A stretch of 64,000 bases of DNA from a virus (IMGVR_UViG_3300027801_000011:51310-115309), one strand, 5' to 3'; shown: positions 28,321-52,631, counted from the first letter of the stretch. A program made the numbers and translations. The notes: generated by a model not told the origin, from the letters alone.

Positions 28321-28896
28321 ATGGCTGATAACGACTATAAACCGATTGCCGGTGAACCTTTCCCTTTTTGTGGTAGGATCGTAGAGGCATACTATACGAA
28401 TCCAGAATTGGATACGGTAGCTGTTCTGTGGCATGATACAGGCGATTCAGCTGAAACACAAACATTGCGAGAGTATTACATTGCAGTTGATGAGGAAAAT
28501 GAACAATTTCAGTATCTACTGAAGGAATTTAGTTATGACTCTATTGATGAGTGTACACGTGATCGCAATGAAGCAACCAGAACAGAATTTAGAGATGCTT
28601 TTCATAGGTATGCTACAGAGAATAATTTATATGGTCATGGGGATGATGGAACCAATCGGGCGCCTGAACCAGAAGCAATGGTAGCGCCGGCAGAAGAAAC
28701 TATGCCATCTGTAGATATTATGTTTGAGTATGATGAAGAAGATGAAGTCCAAAAAGAATCTTTGTTTAAAATGAAACTAAAAATGTTCGAACAGGACGTA
28801 ATCCAAAAAAGCAAAGCAAAGGTTAAAAAAGCTGCAATCCGTAAAGCAAAAACTCCATTGGAGGCTCTAGTAGCATATTCCGCTTTTATCAAATAG
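28321..28896 (+). CDS. Hypothetical protein (late; possible fibre assembly factor)
   Basis: AGGAG RBS and CATAAATA at 28296; acidic body with a basic C-terminus. Confidence 0.7.
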   Translation: MADNDYKPIAGEPFPFCGRIVEAYYTNPELDTVAVLWHDTGDSAETQTLREYYIAVDEENEQFQYLLKEFSYDSIDECTRDRNEATRTEFRDAFHRYATENNLYGHGDDGTNRAPEPEAMVAPAEETMPSVDIMFEYDEEDEVQKESLFKMKLKMFEQDVIQKSKAKVKKAAIRKAKTPLEALVAYSAFIK

Positions 28897-28900: not shown

Positions 28901-28929
28901 TTGACTTTAATTATAACTTGTGATATGAT
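28901..28929 (+). promoter_or_regulatory. sigma70-type promoter heading the tailoring-enzyme operon
   Basis: TTGACT 28901-28906, 17 nt, TG-A-TATGAT ending 28929. Confidence 0.75.
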
Positions 28930-28949
28930 GTTCTTATTTGTGGGAGTAG

Positions 28950-30290
28950 GTGATGAATATACTAGGGATATCTGAGGGATTTCATGATGCAAGCGTGTGT
29001 TTAATCAGAGGTCACACTATTGTACATGCTTCCCATGCTGAGAGATACAGCGGAGTCAAAAACGACAAATGGGTACATCCTTCCCAATGGCCTGTTTCAG
29101 ATCGCAATCAACCAGACATAGTTGCATACTATGAGAAACCTTTTCGTAAAAACCTAAGACGTTTGTATGCTGGACAATCCTGGCAAACCCCCAGAGTTAA
29201 TTATGACTTTAATTACGGACACCATGAATCTCATGCGGCCGCTGGGTATTATACGTCACCCTTCAATGAATGTAATATTCTAGTTATCGATGCTATCGGT
29301 GAATGGGATACTATTTCTATATGGAAGGCAAAAGATGATAAGATGACTAAGTTGCAGTCATGGAAATATCCGTATTCTCTTGGCCTCCTCTATTCTGCAA
29401 TCACCCAACGTATAGGACTAAAACCCAACGAAGATGAATATATCACGATGGGGATGTCTGCTTATGGAGAACCCAAGTATAATTTAGAAGATCAACTGTG
29501 GGAGAACAATCATAAGGGATGTGGAGACATATACCCAAAAGCCACCTCAGAAGACCTGGCAGCATCCGTTCAGCTGCTCTATGAGAGGGAGTTACTTAAA
29601 CTTGTGGACTTATGTCCCAGTGAAAATCTAGTAATTATGGGAGGGTGTGCTTTAAATTGTGCAGCTAATTCTAAGATAAAAGGAAAGAATATCTGGATCA
29701 TGCCCGCCCCTGGCGATGCTGGTTCTGCTATTGGGGCAGCGGCCTTAGTTCTAAAGACAAAACTAAAGTGGCGAAATCCTTATCTTGGTTATCCTATAAT
29801 GCAAGGTTTACATTTGAACGAAATAATAGAAACATTAGAAACAAATAAGATTGTTGGTATTGCAAATGGTAGGGCAGAGTTTGGGCCCAGGGCATTAGGT
29901 AATCGATCTCTTCTTGCTGATCCACGATATGATATAAAGGATACTGTGAATAAGATCAAACGCAGACAGTTGTTTCGTCCTTTCGCACCAGCAATTCTGG
30001 AAGAGTATGCAGACGAATACTTTGAGGGCCCTATGAATGAGTACATGCAATTTGTCGCAAAAGCAAAGCATGACTATAGTTCTGTTACTCATGTTGATGG
30101 CACTGCCAGAGTGCAAGTAGTGAAGAAAAATTGTGGTTCACAAATAAGACAAATATTAGAGGTGTGGTATGAAAAGACAGGATGTCCTATGTTACTCAAT
30201 ACCTCTTTAAATATTAAAGGCAAACCTATGGTTAATACGTGGGAAGACGCCCAACAATGGAGTAAGTTATATAATGTCCCTGTTTTCTAA
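28950..30290 (+). CDS. O-carbamoyltransferase (NodU/CmcH/TobZ family)
   Basis: ILGISEGFHDAS, ERYSGVKND, HHESHAAA, DAIGEW, GGCALNC, PGDAGSAIGAA, EFGPRALGNRS, FRPFAP, HVDGTARVQ, LLNTSLN. Confidence 0.95.
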   Translation: MMNILGISEGFHDASVCLIRGHTIVHASHAERYSGVKNDKWVHPSQWPVSDRNQPDIVAYYEKPFRKNLRRLYAGQSWQTPRVNYDFNYGHHESHAAAGYYTSPFNECNILVIDAIGEWDTISIWKAKDDKMTKLQSWKYPYSLGLLYSAITQRIGLKPNEDEYITMGMSAYGEPKYNLEDQLWENNHKGCGDIYPKATSEDLAASVQLLYERELLKLVDLCPSENLVIMGGCALNCAANSKIKGKNIWIMPAPGDAGSAIGAAALVLKTKLKWRNPYLGYPIMQGLHLNEIIETLETNKIVGIANGRAEFGPRALGNRSLLADPRYDIKDTVNKIKRRQLFRPFAPAILEEYADEYFEGPMNEYMQFVAKAKHDYSSVTHVDGTARVQVVKKNCGSQIRQILEVWYEKTGCPMLLNTSLNIKGKPMVNTWEDAQQWSKLYNVPVF

Positions 30291-31080
30291 ACGCAAGAAG
30301 TTAATTATAGGTGGTTGTTCCTACACAGACAACTATGCAGAAAAACAAAAGATGCCAGAGTTTCCTATATGGGGAGAAGTTCTAGCTGATAAGTTGGATA
30401 TGGATTTGATTAATCTAGCATCGTGTGGTTATAGTAATAAAGCAATTTATCACACTCTTACAGAATCTATGCTAACCAATAAGAACGTAGGTCTAGTTGT
30501 TTCTATGTGGAGTGAATGGCAGAGGTTTGGAGCCTATGTAGATGTGAGCACGAAAATGTTAAACAGACACCCGTGGAGATGCTTTCTACCAGAAAGAACT
30601 GTTAAGGACGCTGAATGGCACGATCAATTTTATACGAATGGAACTATCAATCCAAAGAAGCAAGGACTAAAATACGATATAAGTAAAGCAATTATTGCAA
30701 AGGGACTTGACTCTATTAAAGCCGGCACGGTTGAAACCTTGGGTTATATGTATGCTTTTCAAAACGCATGTGAACAAGAGGGAGTAGACTACTTACAAAT
30801 ACAGGGATGTCAACCTCTGATGAGCAAATCAGAACCAATGAATGGTATGCAGTATAGAGAATTGTGCAATCATATTATTGAAAGTCCCTACATCGAAAGA
30901 ATGAGTAGTGCCTTTATGGGTTGGCCGATTGATGAACGAATTGGTGGTTATAGTATCGACAACAAATTAAAAGACGAACACAGGTTCAGTCCAGAAGATA
31001 CACACCCGAATGAAGAAGGCCACCTATTAATGGCAGAAAGGATATTTGAAGAATATGAAAAAATATATACTGAAACTTAA
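30274..31080 (+). CDS. SGNH/GDSL hydrolase-like protein
   Basis: Block I GCSYT, NLASCGYSN and block V DTHPNEEGH. Confidence 0.8.
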   Translation: MSLFSKRKKLIIGGCSYTDNYAEKQKMPEFPIWGEVLADKLDMDLINLASCGYSNKAIYHTLTESMLTNKNVGLVVSMWSEWQRFGAYVDVSTKMLNRHPWRCFLPERTVKDAEWHDQFYTNGTINPKKQGLKYDISKAIIAKGLDSIKAGTVETLGYMYAFQNACEQEGVDYLQIQGCQPLMSKSEPMNGMQYRELCNHIIESPYIERMSSAFMGWPIDERIGGYSIDNKLKDEHRFSPEDTHPNEEGHLLMAERIFEEYEKIYTET

Positions 31081-31228
31081 ACTATTCTTATCTGGATTTA
31101 AAAGGCAGAATAATAAAGAAGAAGCTGGATTCATATATGAATTTGATGATAAGAGATTTAAAGACCTTACACAAGAAGAACAGGGGATACAGGTTCAGAA
31201 AAACTGGAACAGGTATATGAAGAAATGA
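31055..31228 (+). CDS. Small basic protein with an FIY motif
   Basis: MKKYILKLKLFLSGFKRQNNKEEAGFIYE...; overlaps both neighbours. Confidence 0.6.
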   Translation: MKKYILKLKLFLSGFKRQNNKEEAGFIYEFDDKRFKDLTQEEQGIQVQKNWNRYMKK

Positions 31229-31950
31229 AATTAGTAGCAATAGGAGATAGTTATACTATTAATGGTTCATGGCCAGACCTGTTAGCTGAAAAACTTGATA
31301 TGGAATGTATTAACTTTGGAGGCGATGGATCAGGCAATCAATTTATCATATCTAAAGTGTTAGATACTTTATTGCTTGAAGATGTTGGGTTGGTTGTTGT
31401 TCAATGGAGCGAATGGCAAAGGTTAGATTTCGAACATCACCCTAAGAGAAATAAGGGCTGGACTTCATTACACCCACATAGAGACAACTCTAGAGTAGAA
31501 AAATATCCCATGAGTTTAGAAGGAAGATGGACTATGATGGAGTATAGTAATTTTGTAGCATCTACTATGCTTTCCCTTAGACTCTTTGTCATTGCTCAGA
31601 AACTATTAAAAGATATTCCTCACCTTATGATGCAAGGGCCATATCCCCTAATTCAACCACAATATGACATGGGTAGAGCCGAGAGTTATAAATGGAACTA
31701 TAGTGAGGAAATGAAAAAGGTGTATTCAAACTGCTTAGATCATCAGCTAATGAATCAGATAGAAGAGGACACGTTTATCGGTTGGCCAATAATTGGAATG
31801 GGTGGATATAGTATGGACGGACTACTTGACGAAAATGATAGTACGAGACAAAAATACAGACAGGGCAACAACAACAGCACCCCCAATGATGCTGGAAATG
31901 AGATGATTTCGAAGGATATATATAAAGTATATAAGAAGGTTTATGGATGA
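31225..31950 (+). CDS. SGNH-like paralogue lacking the block V His
   Basis: GDSYT, NFGGDGSGN and WSEWQR are shared with 30274; STPNDAGN replaces THPNEEGH. Confidence 0.75.
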   Translation: MKLVAIGDSYTINGSWPDLLAEKLDMECINFGGDGSGNQFIISKVLDTLLLEDVGLVVVQWSEWQRLDFEHHPKRNKGWTSLHPHRDNSRVEKYPMSLEGRWTMMEYSNFVASTMLSLRLFVIAQKLLKDIPHLMMQGPYPLIQPQYDMGRAESYKWNYSEEMKKVYSNCLDHQLMNQIEEDTFIGWPIIGMGGYSMDGLLDENDSTRQKYRQGNNNSTPNDAGNEMISKDIYKVYKKVYG

Positions 31951-32699
31951 ATACAATATTATGCGTAAGGTGGGGTGACAAGTATGATCATACCTATGTT
32001 GAAAAACTAAAGGAACAGTGCGAACAAAATTGCTCTGTTCCATTTAACTTCTACTGTCTCACAGACAAACCAACTAAGCCATATGATATAAAACTTCCAA
32101 CTGAGTTGGATGAGTACTACTTAGAGGATCGTGGATTCTTTTGGGCGTATAGGAAGTATTATGCATTTGCATTGGCTGGTGATGATAATAAACTAAACGT
32201 AAAACATTTTTCTAGAATTAAGGGCGACAAATTCTTGCTGTTAGACCTTGATGTTATCATACACCAAGACCTTAAATATTTCTTTGATCTTCCTATGGAC
32301 AAGCCTTGGATGGTACGTGGATGGTGGAATAACATAGATACAGTTAAACAAAACTTTGCTAAACACAAATCTACGCCTCTTAACTCTTCCGTGATACGAT
32401 GGGATCGTGGGCAATTAGAAAGTGTCTATAAGAAAATCAAAACAAATGCTGAAGTAATCTTCTTTACATACCCCAGTGCCGATAACTATTTTAATCATCA
32501 CTGGTATAACTGTTGGGATGAAGACAAGGGATTCTTTAAAGCTTTCCCCAAAGGTGACGTATACTCTTGGTATAAGGGTAATGTATATCCTCATGATATG
32601 GCACCAAAGAAAATAAGAGAAGATCATAAAATATGTCTATTCAATAACTCTGGATATGATGAAGGCGACAACGATGATGAGATAAAGGAACTATGGTGA
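31947..32699 (+). CDS. GT-A fold glycosyltransferase
   Basis: ILCVRWGDKY..YVEKL..FYCLTD, DLD (DxD) and NSSVIRW. Confidence 0.8.
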   Translation: MNTILCVRWGDKYDHTYVEKLKEQCEQNCSVPFNFYCLTDKPTKPYDIKLPTELDEYYLEDRGFFWAYRKYYAFALAGDDNKLNVKHFSRIKGDKFLLLDLDVIIHQDLKYFFDLPMDKPWMVRGWWNNIDTVKQNFAKHKSTPLNSSVIRWDRGQLESVYKKIKTNAEVIFFTYPSADNYFNHHWYNCWDEDKGFFKAFPKGDVYSWYKGNVYPHDMAPKKIREDHKICLFNNSGYDEGDNDDEIKELW

Positions 32700-33343
32700 A
32701 TTATATAAAGTACACGCCTGAACTGGCAAACGATTGGAAACAAGCAGCTGCAGATGTTAAGAAAGATTACCCCCATCAGTTCAGACGCACTTTAGACGCT
32801 AGTACGGAATCTCAATTAAAAAGTAAACTATGGCTCGTTAACACCTTAAAAGAATTGGCGATGGATTCGTTGATACCAGACAACCCCCGTGTTGCTTTGG
32901 TAGGTGGCTGGTTTGCGAACTACCTAACACCTTTATTGTTTGATGTAATGTATGCTAAACAGGTATTCAATTATGAGATTGATAATGATGCAAAAGAAAT
33001 AAGCTACAAATACAATAAGAGATATAAGGATTCAGATAAATATCAATGTTCTGTTAAAGACGTTATGATGAAGTCTTTAGGAGACAACTATGATATTATT
33101 ATTAATTGTTCATGTGAACACATGTTTCCCATGACAAAATTCTATGAATGGAATCCAGACTTGCCTGATCCAGTGTATGTCTTACAATCCACAGATGAAG
33201 ACTGCTTTGATGATCATATCAATTGTGTGAGCTCCCCCGAAGAGTTAGCAAAACAAAACAGAATAACAGAAGTGTTATATTCGGGAACGAAGAAGTTACC
33301 TAACGGAATGAACCGTTTTATGGTTATAGGATATCCTTCATGA
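32693..33343 (+). CDS. Class I SAM-dependent methyltransferase-like protein
   Basis: SQLKSKLWL, VALVGGWF, YEID, DIIINCSCEHM and RFMVIG Rossmann pattern. Confidence 0.65.
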   Translation: MVNYIKYTPELANDWKQAAADVKKDYPHQFRRTLDASTESQLKSKLWLVNTLKELAMDSLIPDNPRVALVGGWFANYLTPLLFDVMYAKQVFNYEIDNDAKEISYKYNKRYKDSDKYQCSVKDVMMKSLGDNYDIIINCSCEHMFPMTKFYEWNPDLPDPVYVLQSTDEDCFDDHINCVSSPEELAKQNRITEVLYSGTKKLPNGMNRFMVIGYPS

Positions 33344-34032
33344 CAATTGTCGAGTGGTGCAGAGAGAATGATGTTTGGTATCTTAAAATGGATATAGAGA
33401 TACCAGAAGTATGCATTAAAGAAGCACAAGCAGTATACGATGAAGGGTTCTTTGTAGATCACAGATATGGAGATGGAGATGGTTGGCGTTCTGCTGCAAT
33501 ACATAGCTTCGTCCACGAAGACGCAAAAGATACCAGCATGGGTTGGCATCATACTAAAAACCCAGATGGCCATGGCTTACACGAAAGCAAAGTTAAATGG
33601 GGGTGGACTGAAATTGCAGAAACTGCTCCAGAGACTAAGAGGTGGTTAGAAGACTTTCCACACAAGTCTTATAGACGTTTACGTTTCATGTTATTGGAAC
33701 CACAGGGACGTATAGTAGCCCACAACGATTCTAATAAAAAAAGAGATGACGAAGGAAGAACTAGAAACATTGCTGGTGCAATAAACCTTGCGTTCTACCA
33801 ACCAAAAAATTGTTATCTGAGAAGGGTAGATACTAAAGAAGAGTTGCCCTTTCAAAACTGTACAGGGTTTTGGTTCGACAATGGTGTACACCACGAAGCA
33901 TATAACGCCTCTGAAGAAAATAGATTTCACTTTATTATGCATGGTGGATTTAATTCAGAGCGTAAAGAACTTATGAAGAGGTCGCTTGCAAAGCAATTTG
34001 GCAACGATGTTCTGAAGGAAATTGATGAGTAA
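33340..34032 (+). CDS. Aspartyl/asparaginyl beta-hydroxylase family (2OG-Fe(II))
   Basis: RLRFMLLEPQGRIVAHND, FDNGVHHEAYNASEENRFHFI. Confidence 0.85.
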   Translation: MTIVEWCRENDVWYLKMDIEIPEVCIKEAQAVYDEGFFVDHRYGDGDGWRSAAIHSFVHEDAKDTSMGWHHTKNPDGHGLHESKVKWGWTEIAETAPETKRWLEDFPHKSYRRLRFMLLEPQGRIVAHNDSNKKRDDEGRTRNIAGAINLAFYQPKNCYLRRVDTKEELPFQNCTGFWFDNGVHHEAYNASEENRFHFIMHGGFNSERKELMKRSLAKQFGNDVLKEIDE

Positions 34033-35278
34033 GCTTAAAGACTTGGAGTGGTTCTGTCCTCAGCCGTTCATGAACACTGTGATGAATCACGATCTTATTC
34101 CAAAGGCATGTTGTGTGCTAAAGCAGTGGCCTGGAAATGAAATACGTGAAACTGGTAAGACATCTATTATGGAAGTTCATAATTCAGATTTTATGAAAGA
34201 TTTCCGTAAAGAATTCTTAAACGGTGGCGGGCCAATATCTGATAAATTGTGCATGGTCTGTAAGGAACAAGAAAAACATTCCTCCACAGAAAGTCATCGA
34301 CTAACGTATCTAGATAAGTTTGATGAAGAACATGGAGAGTATAGAGAACATCTAGAGGCTCTTGAGGAGTACATTGATACAGACCAAAGCGATTCTATGT
34401 ATTTGACGTTTGAATATAATGCTCCTAATAACTTCTGCAACCTCAAATGTAACATGTGTTCCCCCATGAATTCATCTACATACGCCAAAGAGAATAAAGC
34501 AATAGGTGTTTCTAATGGAGCTCTAAGGGATGAGACTTGGATCAATCTTGAAGATGATATGTCAAGATATGAGGATGTGCTTAAAAACCTTATAGAATTG
34601 AAACTAGTTGGTGGTGAGACACTTGCTCTTCCTCAAAACTATGCGATGATGGATAAAGCAATAGAGATGGGCGTGTCTAAACAAATGAGACTTGTTATGA
34701 CTACAAATGCAACGCTGACTCCGAAGATGGGTAAGCATGGCGATGTGTTTGATTATGTCCCATACTTTAAAGATTGTCAAATGAATATCTCTATAGAATT
34801 TTGGGGAGAGAAGAATAACTATCTACGGTTCCCATCTAAATGGGAAAAGATTATGAAGAATGTTAAAAAGTTTGCTAAGATGCCCAGAACTAGGATACTA
34901 TTTGCTACCTGTGTTAGTTCTCTAACGATAGGATATCTACACGAAGTAGCTATAGCTGTTGATGCTCTGATAGAAAAAGAACCACACATTTACAATAGTT
35001 TTGCAACTGGCAGTTTGGTTATTGGTGGAACCAACTTATATACTGTAACAGCAATCCCAGAGGGAATTAGAGAAGAGTATCTTGAGACAATTTATAGTCG
35101 TGCTCCCCGAAACCATGCTCCCACATTCTTGAAACTGGCCAACTATCTAACAGAGATGCCTTTTGATCAAGACCTACATAATAGAATGATGATTGACGTA
35201 GCTAAGCGTGATAAATTTCGAGGAACCGTGTTGACAGATTTGTTCCCAGAGTGGAAACCATATTATGAAAAACTTTGA
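34025..35278 (+). CDS. Radical SAM protein with N-terminal twitch/SPASM-like Cys domain
   Basis: CNLKCNMC (CxxxCxxC), GGET, TTNAT, YLRFPSKW; N-terminal FCPQPF..ACC..CMVC. Confidence 0.9.
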   Translation: MSKLKDLEWFCPQPFMNTVMNHDLIPKACCVLKQWPGNEIRETGKTSIMEVHNSDFMKDFRKEFLNGGGPISDKLCMVCKEQEKHSSTESHRLTYLDKFDEEHGEYREHLEALEEYIDTDQSDSMYLTFEYNAPNNFCNLKCNMCSPMNSSTYAKENKAIGVSNGALRDETWINLEDDMSRYEDVLKNLIELKLVGGETLALPQNYAMMDKAIEMGVSKQMRLVMTTNATLTPKMGKHGDVFDYVPYFKDCQMNISIEFWGEKNNYLRFPSKWEKIMKNVKKFAKMPRTRILFATCVSSLTIGYLHEVAIAVDALIEKEPHIYNSFATGSLVIGGTNLYTVTAIPEGIREEYLETIYSRAPRNHAPTFLKLANYLTEMPFDQDLHNRMMIDVAKRDKFRGTVLTDLFPEWKPYYEKL

Positions 35279-36839
35279 TGAGTTTGGCAATGTAATAGTT
35301 GGGCGGGACGTAATGCCCTTCCGGCATCACGCCCTTGAACTATCAATTGTAGAACCATTTTTGGCATTTAAAGCTCTGTGGGAAAAAGAAACCAAAGACA
35401 TCAAAAATAAAAAAGAGTTAGAACACTTATTATTTGTAGTTGTATATCCAGACAAGTTGAAGTGGGCGTTTCATATTGAGAAACAACTACAAACAACTAC
35501 AATACAAACCTCAGGCGGTGTCACTGGCGCTGGTACTGGTCACAATCAAATATTGTGTCTAGAGAGTGAACTCCATAATACCCTACAAAACTCTAAAGCC
35601 TCCCATGCGATGATAGTAACGGTGGGTATGGTCTTTAATATGACTAAAGTAAATACTTCTATAACAAGATTTTATGAATTTGCAGAGACAGACGTATACG
35701 CTAGAGGTCATATTATAGCCCGCCCAGAAGATAAGGCATATCTACATCATCAACATATAGAGATAAACTTAAACCAGTGGAAAGGTTTAGGATCACCTAA
35801 AGTATATGAGAGGTGGCCTGTGTTTGAAAGATCAGAAGAAAACTTTCATGATGATTATACTCCACATTGGATTCTGCCTAAAGATCGCCCATTGATTAAT
35901 AACTTTACAGACGAAGAACGAAAAAATAAACATTTTGCATATCATATGGCGAACAGAAAAGATATACAGGAAATAAATTGGAGAGCGATGACACCACAGT
36001 TGCCAGACTATTGGTGGAAAAGTGCCGCAACTTTTAAGCATACACCTAAAGGAAGAGGGTTCTATGGTTGGCGTCAAAGGGTGGATAGGAGTGATCCTTA
36101 TTTTGATATCTTGATGAACAGGATGACTGAGGTTTTTTACGCTGAAAATACTGAAGAAGTTGGCCAACTCCCAACTGATAAATTTGATTTAATTATTACA
36201 CCAACAGCTGGTTATAGTGGAGAAGTGTTTGCTGAAAAACTAGATTTCGATGGAGAAATTATATTCTATGATTATTGTCATGAAAATGTTGAGATCAAAA
36301 AATCGATTGTTGATATGAATATGAGTCTTGATGAGATATCTATTTTGAAAAAGTATTGGAGTAAGGGCGTGGGTAATCGCAAAAATGGTAAAACTAGAAC
36401 CCATATGATTACGTTTAATTCCAATCAACTTTCTAATGGCAAGGAACTTAAAAAACGATCTGAGACTTTTGGAACTTGGGAAGAACTACAAGCCCTACAA
36501 GGTAAAATGTCTGATAACTATAAAGTTGATTTTTGGTTGATGGATTTGGTGTGTATGTCTGATCCCGATTGGTATCGGCCGACCAATATTTACTCAGATC
36601 ACTCCGACATACACAACAAATCGGGATATACAACAACTGAGAATTTTATAGATAAGATAAAGGGGAAGCGTGTGTTTATGGATTGTAGTAATATTTTCGG
36701 ATATCATATAGTACATGCTTGTTGGTCTTTATCTCAACTAGTTGAAAGTTATGAAAGACTTGTTAAACTGCTACAAGAGAACACCGAATATTTCTACTTA
36801 AAGGGAACTCGGCCCGGCAAACAGAAAATAAGAATATGA
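35265..36839 (+). CDS. Hypothetical 524-aa protein, possible C-terminal methyltransferase-like domain
   Basis: Long coupled ORF; RSEENFHDDYTPHWI; IIFYDY and FMDCSNIFGY weakly suggest a Rossmann fold. Confidence 0.6.
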   Translation: MKNFDEFGNVIVGRDVMPFRHHALELSIVEPFLAFKALWEKETKDIKNKKELEHLLFVVVYPDKLKWAFHIEKQLQTTTIQTSGGVTGAGTGHNQILCLESELHNTLQNSKASHAMIVTVGMVFNMTKVNTSITRFYEFAETDVYARGHIIARPEDKAYLHHQHIEINLNQWKGLGSPKVYERWPVFERSEENFHDDYTPHWILPKDRPLINNFTDEERKNKHFAYHMANRKDIQEINWRAMTPQLPDYWWKSAATFKHTPKGRGFYGWRQRVDRSDPYFDILMNRMTEVFYAENTEEVGQLPTDKFDLIITPTAGYSGEVFAEKLDFDGEIIFYDYCHENVEIKKSIVDMNMSLDEISILKKYWSKGVGNRKNGKTRTHMITFNSNQLSNGKELKKRSETFGTWEELQALQGKMSDNYKVDFWLMDLVCMSDPDWYRPTNIYSDHSDIHNKSGYTTTENFIDKIKGKRVFMDCSNIFGYHIVHACWSLSQLVESYERLVKLLQENTEYFYLKGTRPGKQKIRI

Positions 36840-37540
36840 AGATATTAGCATTAAGAATTGGTGATAAGTATGGCCCAGAGTATGAAGACTATTTGAATAA
36901 AAAACTATCCAAATATGACATACATTGGATGCATGAGCCGTATGATGAAAGAGTTACCTTACAGTGGAATAAGATGTGGGGTATGCAGTTGGATCAAAAT
37001 GAGCCTATTTGTGTCATGGACATAGATGTTCTTCTCATGGGCGACTACGAAAGAATATTTGACTATCCTATTATGCGTGGACAATTCCTTGCAATGCCTG
37101 GCTGGTGGAGAGACACAAAGAAAGAAGGTTACTCTATCAACGGTGGATTCTTTAAGTACTATCCGAAGGACTGTAAGTATATCTACGATAAGTTTATGAA
37201 AGATATACACGGGTGGCAGAGACACTACATTGATAATGGGGTTACAAAAGGCCCTGTTAATGGAGAGCAGTACTTTGTCGAAGACTCAGTATTACAAAAA
37301 TTAGAACTTATCACATTACCCAAAGAATGGTTTACTCGCTGGGTTGTAGACTCCGATATTGTAGGTAGGAGTATGACTACATGGCAAGTACAGATCACAC
37401 GTAAGTATCGGGAGATAACAGGGAACGACTATATATTCCTTGGTGGTGAGTTTCATCCAGATATCAAATTCGTACACTTCACACACAGAAATAACAAGCC
37501 TCATGAATGGGAATACTATGAACAAATTCGTTTACGTTAG
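36836..37540 (+). CDS. GT-A fold glycosyltransferase, paralogue of 31947
   Basis: ILALRIGDKYGPEY, WNK, DID (DxD), INGGF, GEQYFV, KFVHFT..NKPH. Confidence 0.8.
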   Translation: MKILALRIGDKYGPEYEDYLNKKLSKYDIHWMHEPYDERVTLQWNKMWGMQLDQNEPICVMDIDVLLMGDYERIFDYPIMRGQFLAMPGWWRDTKKEGYSINGGFFKYYPKDCKYIYDKFMKDIHGWQRHYIDNGVTKGPVNGEQYFVEDSVLQKLELITLPKEWFTRWVVDSDIVGRSMTTWQVQITRKYREITGNDYIFLGGEFHPDIKFVHFTHRNNKPHEWEYYEQIRLR

Positions 37541-38681
37541 TCATGAGTTTCGTACTCTATATCAGAGTATGTACTTCAAGAATACTCAGAAGGTCTGGGA
37601 TACTTCTTGGGTAGATGAAGACTTTAAAGAACAACTTGAATTTAAACTTCAAGAAGAACAACATATGCTTAGAAAATACACAAGGCCTCATACTGCATAC
37701 CTTAATGATATAGAAGGTGAGACTGAGCTTGTATTCAACATGAGTATGAAACATTTTGGTGAGCCCCAGAAATATGAATGGACTGCTGATCTGACAGAGA
37801 AATTTACAGACCTTCTTATGGAAAAAGCGATATCTATTAGAGACAAGGGTAGAAAAATTCAAGTATTATATTCTGGAGGAATTGACAGTTCTGCAGCACT
37901 ACTTGCTTTATATGAGGTTTGTCCTAAAGATCAGATTGAAGTTGTCATGGGAAGAACTGGCGAAGGTGGTGCTGGTTTTAGAGCTAAAGATCAGACTGAT
38001 CCTGTAAAGCAAAATCCTTGGATGTTTGATAATATTGTAAAACATTTGGATCACACATTCACTGATGATTTAAATGGTTACTGTGATCCTAGCAAATATG
38101 TGTTTGTCACAGGCAATGAAGCAGATCGTTTATTCGGGTCTACTGGTTATACTCTAATGACTCAATACTCTAAACCAGATGGTGCTGATTACCAAGAACA
38201 TTGGGGAAAGGCTCCAACTGATGAACTTGATGAAAATTGGCAATGGAACCAAAACAGGTGGTGGGGTATAACTAGGTACACATATCTTATGCAATCTTTT
38301 CGTATGATGGCAAACATTTCATGTGATAAGATTGATATGGACAACTACCAGCCCATGTTCTTTGATAGAAAGATGTTACAATTTGCTATCAATCTACATA
38401 TCCAAAAGAAACATAAGTGGTACAACTGTGGAGCCTTAGCAGATGAGAAGAAATTTAGAGATGGAAAGATGTGGATACGTGACGCTATATTTGATATAAC
38501 TAAAAATAGTTGGGTATCATATAACATGCATAAGACTATTTCATCTGCAACTGATCTTAATAAAAGGCAGTCTGTTCCTCTGCCATTGCGCTTGAAGGTG
38601 TTAGCAATAACAGAAGATGGTACAGTTGTTAATAGAAAAAATTTAATGGAATATGTCTGTAGGGAGTCTTTTACGATATGA
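37518..38681 (+). CDS. Asparagine-synthetase-like N-type ATP pyrophosphatase (PP-loop) ligase, no glutaminase domain
   Basis: YSGGIDSS and TGNEADRLFG; start set to ATG 37518 by alignment with the downstream paralogue. Confidence 0.8.
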   Translation: MNKFVYVSHEFRTLYQSMYFKNTQKVWDTSWVDEDFKEQLEFKLQEEQHMLRKYTRPHTAYLNDIEGETELVFNMSMKHFGEPQKYEWTADLTEKFTDLLMEKAISIRDKGRKIQVLYSGGIDSSAALLALYEVCPKDQIEVVMGRTGEGGAGFRAKDQTDPVKQNPWMFDNIVKHLDHTFTDDLNGYCDPSKYVFVTGNEADRLFGSTGYTLMTQYSKPDGADYQEHWGKAPTDELDENWQWNQNRWWGITRYTYLMQSFRMMANISCDKIDMDNYQPMFFDRKMLQFAINLHIQKKHKWYNCGALADEKKFRDGKMWIRDAIFDITKNSWVSYNMHKTISSATDLNKRQSVPLPLRLKVLAITEDGTVVNRKNLMEYVCRESFTI

Positions 38682-39823
38682 AAAAATTCTGCTATGTAAG
38701 TAATGATTTCAAAAATGCTTGGAGAATATTTTTTGCCAATAAGAAGATGTTATGGGATACCTCTTGGGTAGACGAATCTGTTTTGAAGAGATTCTTTGAA
38801 CTTTATAATAAAGAGAATTCTGATCTGAAGAAGTACTCTCGCCCAGCTAACTGGTATCTTAATGACCTAGAACAAAAGGATACTTATTTGTTTCCTATGG
38901 CACAATCACATTTTAACGGTGCTGGCCAGAAGTATGAATATACAGAGGGGTTGCCTTCTCTTAAAGATATCTTATTAGAGAGAGCCGCTGATATAAGGGA
39001 TCAAGGAAAACCTATTGAAATATTGTATTCTGGTGGGATAGATAGTTCAGCTGTAGTTCTTGCTTTTAATGAAGTATGTCCCAAAGATCAGCTGAAGATT
39101 TGGATGGCAGGAGATCATTGCATTACCAACAACAAAAATCTTTTTGATAAAATTGTTAGTAATTTGGAATGGGAAATGACAACAAATCTAAATGGTTGTT
39201 GTGACCCTAGTAAAAATGTATTCACATCTGGTAATGAAGCAGATAGATTGTTTGGTGCTGATGGTTACACTCAAATGATGGGACACTCAAAACGAGATGA
39301 GAATAGTAAGAACGGATATAAGATACTAGGGCCAAATGAACCACCCACTACAGATCATCCAGACAACTGGCAGTGGAACCAAGACCGATGGTGGGGTATT
39401 ACTAGTCACACATATCTAACACAGTCTTGGAGAATGTTACGTAATGTTGAATGTGATAAAATAGTTATGGATAATTTCCAGCCTTTGTTTTTTGATAAAA
39501 GAATATTACAGTATGCTATAAACATCCATATGGATGGAGAAATGAAGTGGTACAACTCTGGTCTATTGGCTGACCCTCAGAGATACAAAGAGGGCAAGAT
39601 TTGGGTAAGAAATTTTGTTTATGAAATGTCGGGCGATAAAGAATATTCTTATAATATCGGTAAGACATTAACTACTGTATCAGATATAAATGAAATGTTT
39701 AAGTTACCACTGGCTCCAGACTTTAATGTTCTTGGTGTTATGGACGATGGTACTGTTGTAAATAGAGACAATATGATGGAATATATGACCAAAGAACACA
39801 CATTGTTCTCTAATGCTATATAA
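38678..39823 (+). CDS. Asparagine-synthetase-like PP-loop ligase, tandem paralogue
   Basis: YSGGIDSS and SGNEADRLFG; colinear with 37518. Confidence 0.8.
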   Translation: MKKFCYVSNDFKNAWRIFFANKKMLWDTSWVDESVLKRFFELYNKENSDLKKYSRPANWYLNDLEQKDTYLFPMAQSHFNGAGQKYEYTEGLPSLKDILLERAADIRDQGKPIEILYSGGIDSSAVVLAFNEVCPKDQLKIWMAGDHCITNNKNLFDKIVSNLEWEMTTNLNGCCDPSKNVFTSGNEADRLFGADGYTQMMGHSKRDENSKNGYKILGPNEPPTTDHPDNWQWNQDRWWGITSHTYLTQSWRMLRNVECDKIVMDNFQPLFFDKRILQYAINIHMDGEMKWYNSGLLADPQRYKEGKIWVRNFVYEMSGDKEYSYNIGKTLTTVSDINEMFKLPLAPDFNVLGVMDDGTVVNRDNMMEYMTKEHTLFSNAI

Positions 39824-39832
39824 ATATAAATA
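39819..39832 (+). promoter_or_regulatory. Two overlapping T4 late promoters
   Basis: TATAAATATAAATA. Confidence 0.85.
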
Positions 39833-39851
39833 GAACAAGAGGAGATTAATA

Positions 39852-40196
39852 ATGGCTTTTACATTAACTACAACGTCTGTCGCAGTTAGAGATGACACAA
39901 GCACACCGTGGTTCCATGAAGTTGATAATGATGCAAGGACTGCCTTTTTAGCTTGGCGTGATACAAATTATATCGACACCAATAAAACTTCTGCATGGTC
40001 GGCTACTGAATCTGCTGATGAGACAACTCTTACTTCTGTACGACAATTTGTAGACAGGGATGGGATAAATGCATGGTTAGCGGAATCCAATGTAAAAACT
40101 CAGATGGCTGCTCGAAAAGTGTATGAAGATGCAAACGGAATTACTAGAACAGGCACAAGGATGCTTTTAGGCAGTTACCTTGCTTTCTCTGGTTAG
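39852..40196 (+). CDS. Late-expressed small protein, homologous to the C-terminal domain of the convergent kinase
   Basis: GAGGAG RBS and double late promoter; R....PW..YIDTNK..SADETTLTS..F.D..YEDANGI. Confidence 0.75.
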   Translation: MAFTLTTTSVAVRDDTSTPWFHEVDNDARTAFLAWRDTNYIDTNKTSAWSATESADETTLTSVRQFVDRDGINAWLAESNVKTQMAARKVYEDANGITRTGTRMLLGSYLAFSG

Positions 40197-40197
40197 T

Positions 40198-41106
40198 TTA
40201 TTCAACAAATGATTCTATACCTTGTTCTTTATTATACTGAGACAGCAATTCTCTTCGTGCCACAATCACTGGGTCTTCTAGATAATCAATGTTGGCTGAC
40301 TTGTCTTTAAATATAGTACGAGACGTTTTTGACAATCCATCCTTAGACATCATCGTATTGGTTGTAATCATTTTGCCAGTATCTCTATATGTTTCCATAA
40401 TATGTGCTTTGTGATCTTCTGATTGCTCTGACCATTCTACATCAACACTTGGTCTAGTCTGGATCAGTATAGTCATATAACCTTTTACTTGAGCGTCAGT
40501 CATTTTCATTCGTTCAAATTTCTGTATAGCATCTGGTTCATCGTGACGCAGAAGGCCTCGCTCCTCTCGTATTCTAATAGAGTTAGCAATAGAAACTCTG
40601 TTCAATACTTCAACAACATCAATATCAATTTTCCAAGGGACATGCTTGTGGTAGTGAGTGAGCAATTCTTCTAGTCCATTCCAACCAATCCAACGGTGAA
40701 CCATTCTAAATTCCCAGTGAGGATTACATTTGGATTTTGCTTCCCAATCTATTAGTCCAGTAAGATTTCCCTGCTCATCTACAAAAATATTCTGTCTCCA
40801 CAAGTCTCCATGAATTATACACCGTTCTTCACCCAAAGGCCCTTTTAGTTCTGCTAAGTCAAACAAAGCATCTTCTATATATTCGTCTTTAGTTGCCATC
40901 GGCATTAAAGACTTTATTACAGAGTGCATTTGGTGTGGACGGATACCTTTGACTCTGAGATTGGTACTGTGTAATTCTCCCAACAAATTTCCAAGTTGCT
41001 CGTTGAATTTACGACTAGGCATTATAGGCCCACCCTTACCATAAGTATGAGCGAGCTGTTCGCCTGGCACGTGCTGGCCCTTTATCATTTGATCTAAAGT
41101 AACCAT
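40198..41106 (-). CDS. APH/choline-kinase-like phosphotransferase fused to an approximately 95-aa domain
   Basis: Brenner motif IIHGDLWRQNIFVD and GLIDWE; LGNLLGELH. Confidence 0.85.
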   Translation of the reverse strand: MVTLDQMIKGQHVPGEQLAHTYGKGGPIMPSRKFNEQLGNLLGELHSTNLRVKGIRPHQMHSVIKSLMPMATKDEYIEDALFDLAELKGPLGEERCIIHGDLWRQNIFVDEQGNLTGLIDWEAKSKCNPHWEFRMVHRWIGWNGLEELLTHYHKHVPWKIDIDVVEVLNRVSIANSIRIREERGLLRHDEPDAIQKFERMKMTDAQVKGYMTILIQTRPSVDVEWSEQSEDHKAHIMETYRDTGKMITTNTMMSKDGLSKTSRTIFKDKSANIDYLEDPVIVARRELLSQYNKEQGIESFVE

Positions 41107-41777
41107 TCTTCTATCTCCTTGTAATTCGTAAATATTTCAGAATAATCTGGATAAGGTATTACTCCATCCTTATCTAATTCTTCATATGTAACAACAGTAT
41201 GCTCAAGTCTGGACATAAGCATGTTTGTGAATTCTTCTCTTGCCTTGTATTTATGCATCTGCTCGATTGAACCTGTAAAGGAATGTGGTTCTGGGGTTGT
41301 TCTCCATTCATAATTATACGTACAAAATTCTCTTGGAGCAGGATATCCAGGCATACTACAAAACATGGCCGTTTGTTCAAAACAAAAATGAGATACTTTA
41401 TCGTGTTGTTGAAACCAAATTAGAGTGAAATCTTTCAGTATTTTCTCAGCAATGTCAAGTCTCTTTTCTACAGGAAGCTTCCATTTCTTGGGGGTATTGG
41501 TTAATTGTAATGGCATACACTTAACAACATATGGTAGGGGGAAATTGTGGAGATGATTTAGACGCACACGCATTTCAATATCTGTTAACAAATCTTCATT
41601 AACATTCCAATTAATATCCACAGTCTTAGTTTTAAGCTCTGATTTTAGTTGGAGATTAACCATTTTGTTTCGGCCAAACCATTCATTACCATTTACTAGG
41701 TCTTTGTCTTTAGCAAACTGCTTAAGAAAATAGTAAGAACCAGAACGGGGAGTACAGACGATGCAATATTCACTCAC
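41094..41777 (-). CDS. Sulfotransferase-fold (P-loop, Stf0-like) protein
   Basis: IVCTPRSGSYYF 5'-PSB-like loop, NEWF, VVKCMP and VTYEEL. Confidence 0.7.
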   Translation of the reverse strand: MSEYCIVCTPRSGSYYFLKQFAKDKDLVNGNEWFGRNKMVNLQLKSELKTKTVDINWNVNEDLLTDIEMRVRLNHLHNFPLPYVVKCMPLQLTNTPKKWKLPVEKRLDIAEKILKDFTLIWFQQHDKVSHFCFEQTAMFCSMPGYPAPREFCTYNYEWRTTPEPHSFTGSIEQMHKYKAREEFTNMLMSRLEHTVVTYEELDKDGVIPYPDYSEIFTNYKEIEEWLL

Positions 41778-42376
41778 TCAAACCACCCTTTAATCTCTTC
41801 AATATTTTCAAATTTCTTTTCATAGTCTATGCCCATCTTAATTGTTAACACAGTTTGCACAGTGTTATCAACCTCTAATCCATACTGCTCTTGTAGATGA
41901 GCAAGAGTACTTAAAGGATCATCTAGAAAATTCTCAAACGCTACTAGAGCTCCTTCATTGTGAGTATAATAGAAATCCCAGAACTGTTCTAGCTTAGTCA
42001 TAAACCTATCATATTCTTCTTTGGTAGCTATGAGACTATTATCTTTAATCTCTGGCCTCTCAGATGCGTAATGAATGTGGTTGACTTTTGTTCGTAAACG
42101 TGTTATATGACTCAAAAATTGTGATAGTACGTCTTTTCTATACAACCAGATACAGGGAAATCCACTAATCATTTCCCCGAAGTGTTGATCTTCTGGTAGG
42201 TAGTGGGGAAGGATTTTAAGAAGGTGTGGTTGTGTTGCCCAGTTCTGCTCATCTATATCTTTATAGTCATTCTTCTTTAGCCATGAGGCAGGGTCATATA
42301 GTCCGAAGGTGTTGCAAAGGAACCTACGGAAATACGTGCTACCACTCCTAGACGTTGCAATTAACCCTATTCTCAT
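41774..42376 (-). CDS. Sulfotransferase-fold (Stf0-like) protein
   Basis: MRIGLIATSRSGSTYF, LYRKDVLSQFLS and FENFL; start set to ATG 42376. Confidence 0.75.
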   Translation of the reverse strand: MRIGLIATSRSGSTYFRRFLCNTFGLYDPASWLKKNDYKDIDEQNWATQPHLLKILPHYLPEDQHFGEMISGFPCIWLYRKDVLSQFLSHITRLRTKVNHIHYASERPEIKDNSLIATKEEYDRFMTKLEQFWDFYYTHNEGALVAFENFLDDPLSTLAHLQEQYGLEVDNTVQTVLTIKMGIDYEKKFENIEEIKGWFE

Positions 42377-42381
42377 GTACC

Positions 42382-42389
42382 TATATATA
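42382..42389. promoter_or_regulatory. Palindromic TATATATA, putative bidirectional late promoter
   Basis: The only element in the 16-bp gap between divergent ATGs 42376(-) and 42393(+). Confidence 0.55.
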
Positions 42390-42392
42390 ACT

Positions 42393-42866
42393 ATGAAAGT
42401 TATTGAATCTACATTCGAGGAAGTGTTTCCTGTCTGGCGTGACAGACTGTGGCCCAATAGGATTAGTGCAATTGAACCTATGAGTAGTCTGTGCTGGAGG
42501 CAACCAAAAGATATAATAAAGGACAGTTCGATATTCGATAAGTATGTCCCCAGTTTCTTTGCTTTGAAGATAGATGATGAAATTGTTGGAGTGAATAGTG
42601 GATTTAAAACAAGTGAGAAAGTTTATCGTTCTAGAGGATTGTGGGTAAGTGAACAACATAGAGGTAGGGGATTTGGCCAACTTCTTTTGTTACAAGCAAT
42701 AGTTCAAGGTAAAAGCGAAGACTGTCATTGGATATGGAGTATGCCACGAAAAACCGCTTTGGGGTCTTACGAGAAGGTAGGATTCAAAAAAAGAGGTAAG
42801 TGGATAGACCAAAAGGTAGAATTTGGGCCCAATTGTCTGGCTACCCGCCAGATAATATATAAATAG
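42393..42866 (+). CDS. GNAT acetyltransferase
   Basis: YRSRGLWVSEQHRGRGFGQLLL acetyl-CoA motif A and YEKVGF; start ATG 42393. Confidence 0.88.
   Translation: MKVIESTFEEVFPVWRDRLWPNRISAIEPMSSLCWRQPKDIIKDSSIFDKYVPSFFALKIDDEIVGVNSGFKTSEKVYRSRGLWVSEQHRGRGFGQLLLLQAIVQGKSEDCHWIWSMPRKTALGSYEKVGFKKRGKWIDQKVEFGPNCLATRQIIYK
42858..42865 (+). promoter_or_regulatory. T4 late promoter
   Basis: TATAAATA upstream of gp13. Confidence 0.85.
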
Positions 42867-42883: not shown

Positions 42884-43702
42884 ATGGCCATTCCAACAAG
42901 TAAGACTACTTTCAAAGAATACTGCTTACGCTCATTGGGTGATGGTGTTATTGATATTAACATATCAGATGCCCAAGCGGATGATCGAATTGATGAAGCG
43001 ATTCAGTATTTCTCTCAATATCACTATGAGGGAATTGAAAGGATGTACTTAAAACATCTTATCACACAAGCAGATGTAACTAGAGCTACATCTAACACAG
43101 CATCAACTGGAACCGATCCAGCAGATGACACTATTACTGCGAGTTGGTTAGAAGGTGGAAACTATATTCCTCTGCCAACTTCTGTCATTTCTGTCGTTCA
43201 AGTATTTCCTCTTACTGGTACTGGTACTGGGGCAAACATGTTTGATGCCCGTTATCAGTTACACCTAAACGAATTGTTTGATCTCTCATCTACATCTGTT
43301 ATTCAGTATGAGATGATGAAGAACAACCTAGATTTCCTAGAACACATTCTCATTGGTGAAGCACCTATCAGATTTAACCAACATCAAAATCGTTTATATA
43401 TTGATGCCGATTGGTCTACTGATTTTGTTGCTGGTCAAGACTACATTGTTATTGAGTGTTTCCGAAAACTAGACCCAGCAACATTTACAAATGTGTATGA
43501 TGATGTTCTACTGAAACGATATGCGACTGCTCTTATTAAGAAACAATGGGGTGCAAACCTATCTAAGTTTAGTGGCGTTGCAATGCTAGGTGGTGTTACC
43601 ATGAACGGTGAAACCATTTACTCCCAAGCGCTTGAGGAGATTACCAAGTTAGAGGAAACAATCTTCTTACACGAACCTCCAATACTTATGGCGGTAGGAT
43701 AA
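42884..43702 (+). CDS. gp13: Neck protein gp13
   Basis: KEYCLRSLG..VIDINI..QADDRIDEA; LKRYATALIKKQWGANLSKFSGV.MLGGVT.NG. Confidence 0.95.
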   Translation: MAIPTSKTTFKEYCLRSLGDGVIDINISDAQADDRIDEAIQYFSQYHYEGIERMYLKHLITQADVTRATSNTASTGTDPADDTITASWLEGGNYIPLPTSVISVVQVFPLTGTGTGANMFDARYQLHLNELFDLSSTSVIQYEMMKNNLDFLEHILIGEAPIRFNQHQNRLYIDADWSTDFVAGQDYIVIECFRKLDPATFTNVYDDVLLKRYATALIKKQWGANLSKFSGVAMLGGVTMNGETIYSQALEEITKLEETIFLHEPPILMAVG

Positions 43703-52630: not shown

Positions 52631-52631
52631 A

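Follow-up and report, generated by a model that had tools for sequence, protein, structure and literature searches.

Why does a marine T4-like phage carry, between its giant fibre gene and its neck genes, a packed block of glycosyltransferases, oxidising enzymes and group-transfer enzymes, and what do they modify? We examined this in a stretch of 64,000 nucleotides (hereafter the window). The block is the enzyme-rich part of a host recognition cluster of the type found in pelagimyophage-like T4 relatives, and it is made of separable parts: a near-universal five-gene core, accessory cassettes, and a GNAT gene that belongs to the genomic backbone. Our preferred reading, to which we give a probability of roughly 0.4, is that the block builds and tailors a glycan in the cytoplasm. 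We slightly favour a virion protein as its acceptor, with a host envelope glycan and a small metabolite still in contention. The proposal in the initial annotation that the substrate is a macromolecule and not a small metabolite is plausible.

ORF calls on the window confirm the claim of 17 tightly packed genes, which fill positions 28950-42866; twelve of them, from the carbamoyltransferase gene through the ligase gene L3, form one plus-strand run in which each junction overlaps by 4-26 nt. On the left the island is flanked by the gene of a VrlC-like giant fibre protein (17573..23995, plus strand; Pfam DUF4815, 9e-55), which by position equals the 'putative VrlC' of Pelagibacter phage Mosig. 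The right landmark is a gp13-like neck protein (42884..43702, plus strand), whose gene has a separate late promoter at 42858, and homologues of gp13, gp14 and gp15 run rightwards from 42884. The gp23 protein is 73% identical to that of Mosig and 72% to that of Melnitz. As described by Zaragoza-Solas et al. 2020 (PMC7029224), the host recognition cluster of pelagimyophages and cyanomyophages extends from VrlC to gp14 and holds glycosyltransferases, LPS-type genes and radical-SAM cassettes. The island occupies exactly this interval, and its content, which includes glycosyltransferases and a radical SAM enzyme, is non-syntenic and varies cassette by cassette, so that the term 'undescribed', first applied to it, was too strong. 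Two backbone genes on the plus strand (27347..28896), F1 (317 aa, rich in Ser and Thr, sharing 47% identity with a protein of Mosig) and F2 (191 aa, acidic but Lys-rich at its C-terminus, no match in the GenBank phages searched), precede the module in every locus that spans it and are both kept in relatives that lack it.

The conservation of the island was assessed in 28 complete relatives or, for some genes, in 74 loci, and architectures were tallied over about 140 loci. The initial annotation had named a lack of co-occurrence or conserved linkage across related phages as grounds for refutation; such linkage was found for five genes, G5, G6, HYD, U524 and GT2, which keep one order and occur together in 26-28 of the 28 complete relatives. 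The other twelve are variable. At the level of folds and motifs most of the original gene labels are supported, those of the methyltransferase, both SGNH proteins and one sulfotransferase being weak in databases.

All core genes are on the plus strand. GT2 (36836..37540), the most conserved, is predicted from its fold to be a retaining-type GT-A (GT8-like) glycosyltransferase: its AF2 model (pLDDT 80.5) matches LgtC, UGGT, GlyE, LARGE1, PBCV-1 A64R and glycogenin in Foldseek at 1e-6 to 1e-4, the matches at or below 1e-3 number 94 and are all GT-A among those listed, and the motif D62-x-D64 is invariant in alignment A7, while no Pfam family scores over threshold. Its paralogue G5 (31947..32699; 28/28 loci; hhalign 93% to GT2) is a GT-A-type glycosyltransferase with a DxD motif and no match in GenBank phages. 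HYD (33340..34032; 26/28 loci) is an AspH-family Fe(II)/2OG oxygenase with an intact HxD...H motif, recognised by Pfam PF05118 (1e-8, 35.5 bits against a gathering threshold of 22.6) and by AspH structures at 1e-5, and its residues H128, D130, H185 and R195 are invariant. G6 (32693..33343; 28/28 loci) has a class I SAM-methyltransferase-like fold, suggested by weak matches to a spermidine-synthase fold (1.5e-3) and to a Mosig 'methyltransferase' (29% identity). U524 (35265..36839; 27/28 loci), a protein of 524 aa with no Pfam, PDB or PHROG match, has a His-rich N-terminal and middle part; its C-terminal half is modelled as a class I methyltransferase fold, since for residues 289-524 VIA-align gives Z up to 10 with every match a methyltransferase, and Foldseek finds NNMT at 5e-3, the structure model itself being poor (pLDDT 56). 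In other organisms U524-type domains are fused to AspH domains, in both orders, or to radical-SAM domains; these fusions are independent, and some occur on many contigs, of up to 786 kb.

Median identities of 73% for GT2 and 74% for HYD, compared with 68% for gp13 and with 49% for VrlC and 44% for F2, indicate that conservation of the core equals that of the neck proteins and greatly exceeds that of the fibres. Four of its five genes fall in no Pfam or PHROG family, and a search of 50,697 GenBank phage records gave no orthologue of the core families (weak matches only, 26% for GT2 and 29-32% for G6). A search of 185,579 species genomes found no close homologue of the GT-A pair or of U524. Both results argue against a recent pickup of host LPS genes. 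Clustered at 90% identity, the GT2 family itself makes up 959 clusters in public marine metagenomes, and it occurs on 253 IMG/VR contigs.

The accessory genes come and go as cassettes. The first comprises a short-form O-carbamoyltransferase of the NodU/CmcH type (28950..30290, plus strand; 9/28 loci, median identity 76%), which matches both Pfam domains, N and C, at 1e-41 and 1e-49 in a length of only 446 aa; two paralogous SGNH/GDSL-like hydrolases, S1 (30274..31080) and S2 (31225..31950), both on the plus strand, assigned from the GxSxT, GxN and DxHPNxxGH blocks of alignment A6, with weak database matches (DUF6071 1.7e-5, GDSL 0.16); and the small 'FIY' protein (31055..31228, plus strand), which has a basic amphipathic N-terminus followed by a GFIYE-acidic segment. 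The last represents a genuine conserved ORF family, with HMM matches in 37 loci, nearly always directly 3' of an SGNH gene. A mobile radical SAM enzyme with an N-terminal twitch-like Cys cluster (34022..35278, plus strand; 11/28 loci) scores 234 bits with NF033640 (cut-off 170), carries its CX3CX2C motif at C139/143/146 and the N-terminal cluster at C12/30/31/77/80, and is encoded at other genome positions as well in relatives. Two tandem PP-loop (SGGIDS) AsnB-like amidoligases without a glutaminase domain, L2 and L3 (37518..39823, plus strand), occur in 8/74 and 5/74 loci. They are followed by a small protein (39852..40196, plus strand; 5/74 loci) behind a T4-type late promoter, TATAAATA, at 39819, and by an inverted cassette (40198..42457, minus strand; 11-13 of 74 loci) with an APH-like kinase (Pfam, 1e-10) and two Stf0-like sulfotransferase-fold proteins that share a T(P/S)RSGS loop, one of them below the Pfam cut-off. 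The GNAT acetyltransferase (42394..42866, plus strand; Pfam, 3.5e-11) is found in 62/74 loci, is kept in module-less relatives and adjoins F2 in the loci L169-L173.

In our preferred reading, the products of the phage-specific core operon would work together in the cytoplasm to build and tailor a glycan. Both GT-A enzymes, of the retaining type, would move sugars from host nucleotide sugars onto an acceptor, which the oxygenase and U524, working as a pair, may hydroxylate and probably methylate. The cassette of carbamoyltransferase, SGNH and FIY proteins would add or edit carbamoyl or acyl groups, and swappable cassettes could contribute radical chemistry (the twitch radical SAM enzyme), amidation of carboxylates (the PP-loop ligases), phosphorylation (the kinase) and sulfation (the two sulfotransferase-like proteins). 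The preferred acceptor would be a virion protein of the same late transcript, from among the fibre or whisker proteins whose genes lie directly before the module, and the particle would thereby gain an optional coat of glycans. The order of the chemistry and the acceptor are what we infer here. This reading draws support from the GT-A fold of the core transferases, the intact oxygenase triad and the predicted methyltransferase fold of U524; from the independent fusions of U524 with AspH and radical-SAM domains; and from a core that is conserved like the neck proteins and lacks a GenBank-phage orthologue. The overlapping stops and starts of the twelve genes also favour it, as does transcription: in most relatives only 14-43 nt, with no promoter, separate the module from F2, so that it would be read together with the late fibre genes. 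A 19-residue hydropathy scan for transmembrane helices and signal peptides detected neither in the island's proteins, all of which are predicted to be soluble, and the fold matches include a viral precedent, the capsid glycosyltransferase A64R of PBCV-1. However, the top match, LgtC, acts in lipooligosaccharide synthesis, and the fold therefore cannot tell one kind of acceptor from another. A narrower proposal, that the oxygenase-U524 pair and the two virus-specific GT-A enzymes constitute an uncharacterised system placing a hydroxylated or methylated glycan on fibres or neck, tuned by the cassettes with carbamoyl, sulfate, phosphate or amide groups, is tentative and, in our estimate, rather doubtful.

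Several observations count against a virion acceptor. In this phage the only gap ahead of the island, of 53 nt, holds a sigma70-like, early-type promoter, TTGACT-17-TATGAT with an extended TG (28901..28929, plus strand); it is retained in the nearest relatives (L057/58, where it is a perfect TTGACA-17-TATAAT, and L064/L047) and missing from most others. The module is missing altogether from near-identical phages (gp13 99.3-99.6%), and virions therefore assemble in its absence. A sub-module of HYD, U524 and the radical SAM enzyme adjoins gp32/PhoH in L007, away from structural genes, and recurs in Bdellovibrionota MAGs beside GT2, YdjC, AsnB and carbamoyltransferase genes. Finally, none of the window proteins has the EGF-type acceptor motif CX[DN]XXXX[FY]XC, and the U524 model is poor.

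Some of these same observations suit an alternative that is possible but, in our view, unlikely to be correct: remodelling of the host envelope, in which precursors of LPS, capsule or another surface glycan would be changed in the cytoplasm during infection, and the altered 'glycotype' would prevent superinfection or stop progeny from readsorbing, as has been proposed for the glycosyltransferases of the pelagimyophage cluster. The early-type promoter of this sub-clade and the neighbours of the bacterial sub-module point this way, as do the sugar aminotransferase and epimerase of the Mosig island; presence or absence of the module and the flux of its cassettes are typical of arms-race loci; and host O-chain modification is the published interpretation of the region (PMC7029224, in its available text; PMC12379486). 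However, the core enzymes are highly conserved, in contrast to hypervariable host surface loci, the GT-A pair and U524 are without close relatives in the bacterial genomes searched, and the promoterless module of most relatives follows late fibre genes. Seroconversion of the O-antigen by GtrABC or Oac has the same outcome, an altered host surface glycan, but relies on integral membrane proteins and is typical of temperate phages, whereas every product of the island is soluble; the hydropathy scan revealed no flippase, no polymerase, no Gtr/Oac-type transferase or acyltransferase and no other membrane protein among them.

Tailoring of a soluble glycoside or another metabolite made during infection is improbable. 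Comparable sets of carbamoyl, methyl, sulfate, acetyl and phosphate transfer, together with a twitch radical SAM enzyme, serve Nod-factor and aminoglycoside tailoring, and the solubility of the enzymes would fit. Distant versions of the module are radical-SAM-rich clusters (six radical SAMs in L018), and N_Twi_rSAM is expanded in Bdellovibrionota genomes to 7-32 copies. Of the satellite genes reported from other structural intervals of the window, Pfam bore out DctP, the TAXI-type binding protein and the nitroreductase; it also confirmed DctM and DUF2061, but found no match for a putative SGNH plus sulfotransferase after gp23. The DctP protein has no leader peptide and is coupled to a carboxylate-adenylating ligase, again compatible with a small molecule. 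In the sxt clusters of cyanobacteria an O-carbamoyltransferase, a tiny protein and a GDSL-type hydrolase succeed one another in sxtI-sxtJ-sxtK-sxtL (PMC2679770); the island's order of carbamoyltransferase, FIY and SGNH is parallel to this in arrangement only, and scaffold-forming genes like those of the sxt pathway are not seen in the window. The scan of the window ORFs found no nucleotide-sugar, NRPS or PKS gene, in agreement with the initial annotation; the island has no exporter, and Pfam gave no match for the FIY protein.

It is very unlikely that FIY is a precursor peptide matured in a RiPP-like manner by the radical SAM enzyme, the oxygenase and the ligases. In favour are its small size, its conservation and the invariant FIYE-acidic motif, together with 12 loci in which its gene immediately precedes that of the radical SAM enzyme, an enzyme that weakly matches a ryptide maturase (5e-4, far below the cut-off). 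However, FIY tracks the carbamoyltransferase and SGNH genes (29 of 37 loci) and is inherited independently of the radical SAM gene, which 15 of these loci have and 14 lack; it is missing from the commonest, core-only architecture, and the island has neither protease nor exporter. Hypermodification of phage DNA bases, for which glycosyltransferases, PP-loop and radical-SAM enzymes of other phage systems are a generally known precedent, is the least credible reading. No TGT/DpdA homologue or ThyA-type hydroxymethylase was found in the 115-kb record, although with that record only about 64% complete this negative is not decisive, and Pfam gave no QueC- or QueE-type match for the island's PP-loop and radical-SAM proteins.

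Few large phages of the sea are as abundant as those of the pelagimyophage type, and the GT2 family is widespread. A conserved core within a hypervariable region, which near-identical phages nevertheless lack, suggests a specific, selectable trait; the candidates are decoration of the particle and editing of the host surface, and either could influence which SAR11-type hosts are infected and superinfected. For biochemistry, the fusions of the oxygenase with U524 offer a concrete handle.

Among known systems, virus-encoded glycosylation of virions, as in PBCV-1 and on the capsid or tail of mycobacteriophages, likewise has GT-A transferases beside structural genes; the GT2 model aligns with A64R at 3e-5 (Foldseek), with a TM score of 0.52-0.57. 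To our knowledge, those systems do not include AspH-type oxygenases, U524, radical SAM enzymes or sulfotransferases. The cultured phage Mosig (EXVC030M, MT647606) has an analogous island at 55-73 kb, adjoining VrlC and an F1 homologue. It shares the carbamoyltransferase, the G6-like methyltransferase, a weak GT2-like ORF and radical SAM enzymes, includes two Asp_Arg_Hydrox proteins, a GNAT and nitroreductases, and has no detectable orthologue of U524, HYD or G5; its sugar aminotransferase, epimerase and TauD dioxygenase are additions that the window lacks. A close likeness is to the host recognition cluster as described in the available text of PMC7029224, in genomic address, in the mixture of fibre, glycosyltransferase, LPS-type and radical-SAM genes and in cassette-wise variability. 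No new category is opened, because both this type of island and the competing hypotheses about it are already in the literature. That text treats the enzymes collectively and stresses their variability, whereas here a fixed five-gene core, conserved like the neck proteins and lacking orthologues in cultured phages, is resolved; new as well are the composite structure of the island, the predicted fold and the fusions of U524, and the near-identical relatives without the module.

The window derives from a 115-kb IMG/VR viral contig (bases 51310-115309; estimated completeness ~64%), whose major capsid protein gp23 is 73% identical to that of the cultured Pelagibacter phage Mosig, 72% to that of the OM43 phage Melnitz, and 66% to that of HTVC008M. 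Its structural genes follow a T4-like order: gp5, gp25, gp6, a gp9/10-like protein, gp8, and a 2140-aa VrlC/DUF4815 protein (17573-23995) precede the island, and gp13, gp14, gp15, terminase, the tail sheath-side genes, gp22, and gp23 follow it. Three successive 2OG-Fe(II) oxygenase genes are located upstream of gp5 (2120-3964, plus strand), and a staphylococcal-nuclease-like gene (48341-48751, plus strand) lies immediately 5' of the large terminase gene. A megablast search of the island against GenBank phages gave no match.

The tightly packed 17-gene island described in the initial annotation is borne out: 17 open reading frames (ORFs) occupy positions 28950-42866. From the carbamoyltransferase gene to that of the second PP-loop ligase, each stop overlaps the following start by 4-26 nt, so that 12 genes form one coupled run. 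The small late gene lies behind the T4-type late promoter TATAAATA at 39819, the kinase and two sulfotransferase-like genes are inverted relative to the remainder, and the GNAT gene ends the island immediately before the gp13 late promoter (42858).

Gene-by-gene annotation showed the original labels to be largely right. Pfam supports the carbamoyltransferase, AspH-family oxygenase, radical SAM, APH-type kinase, and GNAT assignments. The radical SAM protein, the only island protein with an NCBIfam match, is an N-terminal-twitch enzyme (NF033640; 234 bits vs a cut-off of 170) with the CX3CX2C motif and an N-terminal Cys cluster. Both SGNH paralogues have the GxSxT, GxN, and DxxH blocks, and the two island ligases (37518-39823) share SGGIDS and the lack of a glutaminase domain with a third at 47135. 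The presumed sulfotransferases have a common T(P/S)RSGS loop, but their Pfam sulfotransferase matches are sub-threshold and confined to one of the pair; the methyltransferase label of G6 (32693-33343) is weakly supported. Ten island proteins fall into no PHROGs family, and PDB profile searches with the ligases, the 524-aa protein U524 (35265-36839), and the proteins G5 (31947-32699) and GT2 (36836-37540) gave nothing meaningful. A PP-loop assignment of GT2 was rejected in favor of GT-A on sequence motifs, an Atlas lead, and the fold search. The small late protein was rejected as a kinase C-terminal domain, BLASTP finding no similarity (E 1.9); at the position of this gene, the related locus L058 has a free ORF (15368-15772, plus strand) with 25% identity to kinase residues 171-301.

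Among the satellite genes in other structural intervals, DctP, DctM, the TAXI-type binding protein, nitroreductase, and DUF2061 were confirmed, but the SGNH and sulfotransferase pair after gp23 was not. DUF2061, a membrane protein, is followed by a DctP-family binding protein without leader peptide and the third PP-loop ligase (45916-48325, plus strand). DctP and PP-loop ligases occur inside the island of four relatives (L114, L115, L124, and L127), with DUF2061 only in L114 and L115; thus these three genes belong to the same accessory pool as the island genes. Between the terminase and tail genes, on the opposite strand (50392-52654, minus), lie genes for a DctM TRAP membrane subunit (~9 hydrophobic segments) and the TAXI-type protein, which has an N-terminal hydrophobic anchor.

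With the radical SAM, U524, GT2, and F2 proteins as queries, IMG/VR yielded about 200 related loci, on which we mapped the window proteins. The recurrent order begins with VrlC, a 78-aa protein, sometimes a 1029-aa fibre, and the backbone genes F1 and F2, followed by an optional carbamoyltransferase-SGNH-FIY cassette, an optional radical SAM gene, G5, G6, the oxygenase HYD (33340-34032), a second optional radical SAM position, U524, and GT2. Between GT2 and the terminal GNAT and gp13 lie either ligases, the small protein, and the inverted kinase and sulfotransferases, or DctP, DUF2061, and ligase, all optional. In the 28 loci that span F2 to GT2 in full, G5 and G6 are always present, U524 is found in 27 and HYD in 26, radical SAM in 11, and carbamoyltransferase in nine. 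On the right side, 74 loci are complete from GT2 to gp13, with GNAT in 62, sulfotransferase-like genes in 13, the kinase in 11, and the ligases in eight and five. By these counts the 17 genes resolve into a five-gene core (G5, G6, HYD, U524, and GT2) and accessories.

The FIY peptide (31055-31228) proved to be a real ORF, with HMM matches in 37 loci, nearly always directly 3' of an SGNH gene. Its N-terminus is basic and amphipathic, and its FIYE-acidic motif is invariant; a regular-expression search found no such small ORF beside carbamoyltransferases in bacterial loci, Mosig, or distant phage loci.

G5 and GT2 are paralogues (hhalign 93%), and the GT-A label was upheld by the GT2 model (pLDDT 80.5), which matches retaining GT-A enzymes at 1e-6 to 1e-4, including LgtC, the UGGT catalytic domain, GlyE, LARGE1, PBCV-1 A64R, and glycogenin. 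U524 has no sequence match in Pfam, NCBIfam, PHROG, or PDB. Its family comprises 338 clusters at 90% identity, all from marine metagenomes and all "hypothetical"; an exhaustive profile search gave 422 representative clusters. The AF2 model is poor overall (pLDDT 56) and assignable in its C-terminal half alone: residues 289-524 consistently align to class I SAM methyltransferases (Z up to 10.0), which make up all 50 matches listed, and Foldseek matched NNMT at 5e-3. The window protein exceeds most of its relatives (443-477 aa) by ~70 aa, which fall in low-confidence parts of the model. Six longer family members have an Asp_Arg_Hydrox domain before or after the U524-type region, and two have radical SAM domains, one also with a B12-binding domain (P0267, P0268, P0308, P0349, P0368, P0386, P0323, and P0375). 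Several fusions are found on many contigs, some of 100-786 kb; a search of genome contigs with the AspH-U524 fusion P0308 gave no match. The existence of fusions in either order argues for joint action of the oxygenase and U524, in many cases together with a radical SAM enzyme.

Distant phage contigs retain the G6-HYD-U524-radical SAM set, sometimes with carbamoyltransferase; the set adjoins PhoH and gp32 in one (L007) and lies among six radical SAM genes in another (L018). In metagenome-assembled genomes (MAGs) of Bdellovibrionota, HYD, a U524-like gene, and two N-terminal-twitch radical SAMs occur together, neighbored by GT2, YdjC, a B12 radical SAM, a full-length carbamoyltransferase, and an AsnB with glutaminase domain. 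The twitch family is expanded in these MAGs to 7-32 copies per genome, with none above cut-off in 14 control genomes. The individual counts are 7, 22, and 32 in G001-G003 (the genomes of loci L068, L067, and L070), and ~15 such genes form an array within 35 kb (G002:C80:36-70 kb).

Median identities to the window are 73% for GT2, 74% for HYD, 76% for carbamoyltransferase, and 64% for G5; 68%, 63%, and 74% for the neck-side proteins gp13, gp14, and gp15; and 41-57% for fibre-side proteins. In tblastn against 50,697 GenBank phage records, U524, HYD, and G5 had no match, GT2 one weak match, and G6 two. The species-genome search covered the GT-A and U524 profiles, whose matches among 185,579 genomes were at most 21-24% identical, a misbinned phage contig aside. 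As both searches gave at most weak or distant matches, the core looks phage-specific and old rather than a recent host import. Two module-bearing phage contigs, L066 (CAJWSQ010000087.1) and P0118, are binned in MAGs labelled Flavobacteriales and Pelagibacteraceae, probably through mis-binning or as infected-cell DNA.

The module is absent from five contigs, where F1-F2 are directly followed by GNAT-gp13, and one more runs from F2 straight to gp15. Comparison of L169-L173 and L187 with L081 and L097 revealed a clean F2/GNAT junction with a 45-47 nt gap. Module-less and core-bearing phages, the latter with either the radical SAM or the carbamoyltransferase cassette, share 99.3-99.6% identity in gp13, 92% in F1, and 85-87% in F2. 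The module is therefore optional, a cassette that members of a single phage lineage may carry or lack; F1 and F2, still 85-92% identical where it is missing, do not depend on it, which weakens the case for F2 as a partner or substrate tied to the module.

The one gap preceding the island holds a sigma70-like promoter (TTGACT-17-TATGAT, extended TG); going upstream in the window, the first late promoter is at 24068. The site is retained in the nearest relatives and perfect in L057/L058. In most relatives only 14-43 nt separate the module from F2 and the site is absent, so this promoter is restricted to the sub-clade of the window and was rejected as a general feature. Abutting F2 without its own promoter, the module would in most relatives be transcribed with the late fibre genes. 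As far as promoter sequences go, the evidence on timing is mixed for the window phage, and for the family it favors expression late in infection.

All proposed chemistry requires cytoplasmic cofactors (nucleotide sugars, SAM, 2OG, carbamoyl phosphate, ATP, and PAPS), and the island proteins all lack signal peptides and convincing membrane segments. Our tentative reading, with a probability of roughly 0.4, is that the island would be a cytoplasmic glycan-building and tailoring cassette, a virion protein being the slightly favored acceptor. This acceptor is suggested by late-operon placement in most relatives, structural-gene-like conservation, phage-specific families, the lack of membrane machinery, and viral precedent among the fold matches. 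Against it, phages can do without the module, an early-type promoter precedes it in the window sub-clade, and the sub-module is also found away from structural regions. Remodelling of the host envelope is a possible but less probable role, and a small-molecule product is doubtful. A RiPP role of the FIY protein is quite improbable on the tests run, as FIY tracks carbamoyltransferase and SGNH (29 of 37 such loci) and not radical SAM; DNA modification seems the least probable alternative, no TGT/DpdA homologue or ThyA-type hydroxymethylase having been found in the ~64% complete 115-kb record.

The island was initially presented as a candidate undescribed modification pathway. The feature is real and well delimited, but "undescribed" is too strong, since the island belongs to an already described type, the "host recognition cluster" (HRC) of pelagimyophages. 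Zaragoza-Solas et al. (PMC7029224) defined the HRC as a large island without synteny that in every case lies between VrlC and gp14. Besides fibres it contains many fibre-unrelated genes, among which glycosyltransferases stand out; even the genomes closest to each other differ in it by radical SAM cassettes, and modification of the host O-chain against co-infection was proposed. Structural variants cluster in this region according to a 2025 study (PMC12379486), and marine T4-like genomes carrying as many as 12 radical SAM genes were reported in 2017 (PMC5332604). The Mosig island is analogous to that of the window, but stocked differently. To this known island type, our analysis adds a resolved conserved core, the apparent oxygenase-U524 coupling, the carbamoyltransferase-SGNH-FIY cassette, and a clean presence/absence polymorphism.
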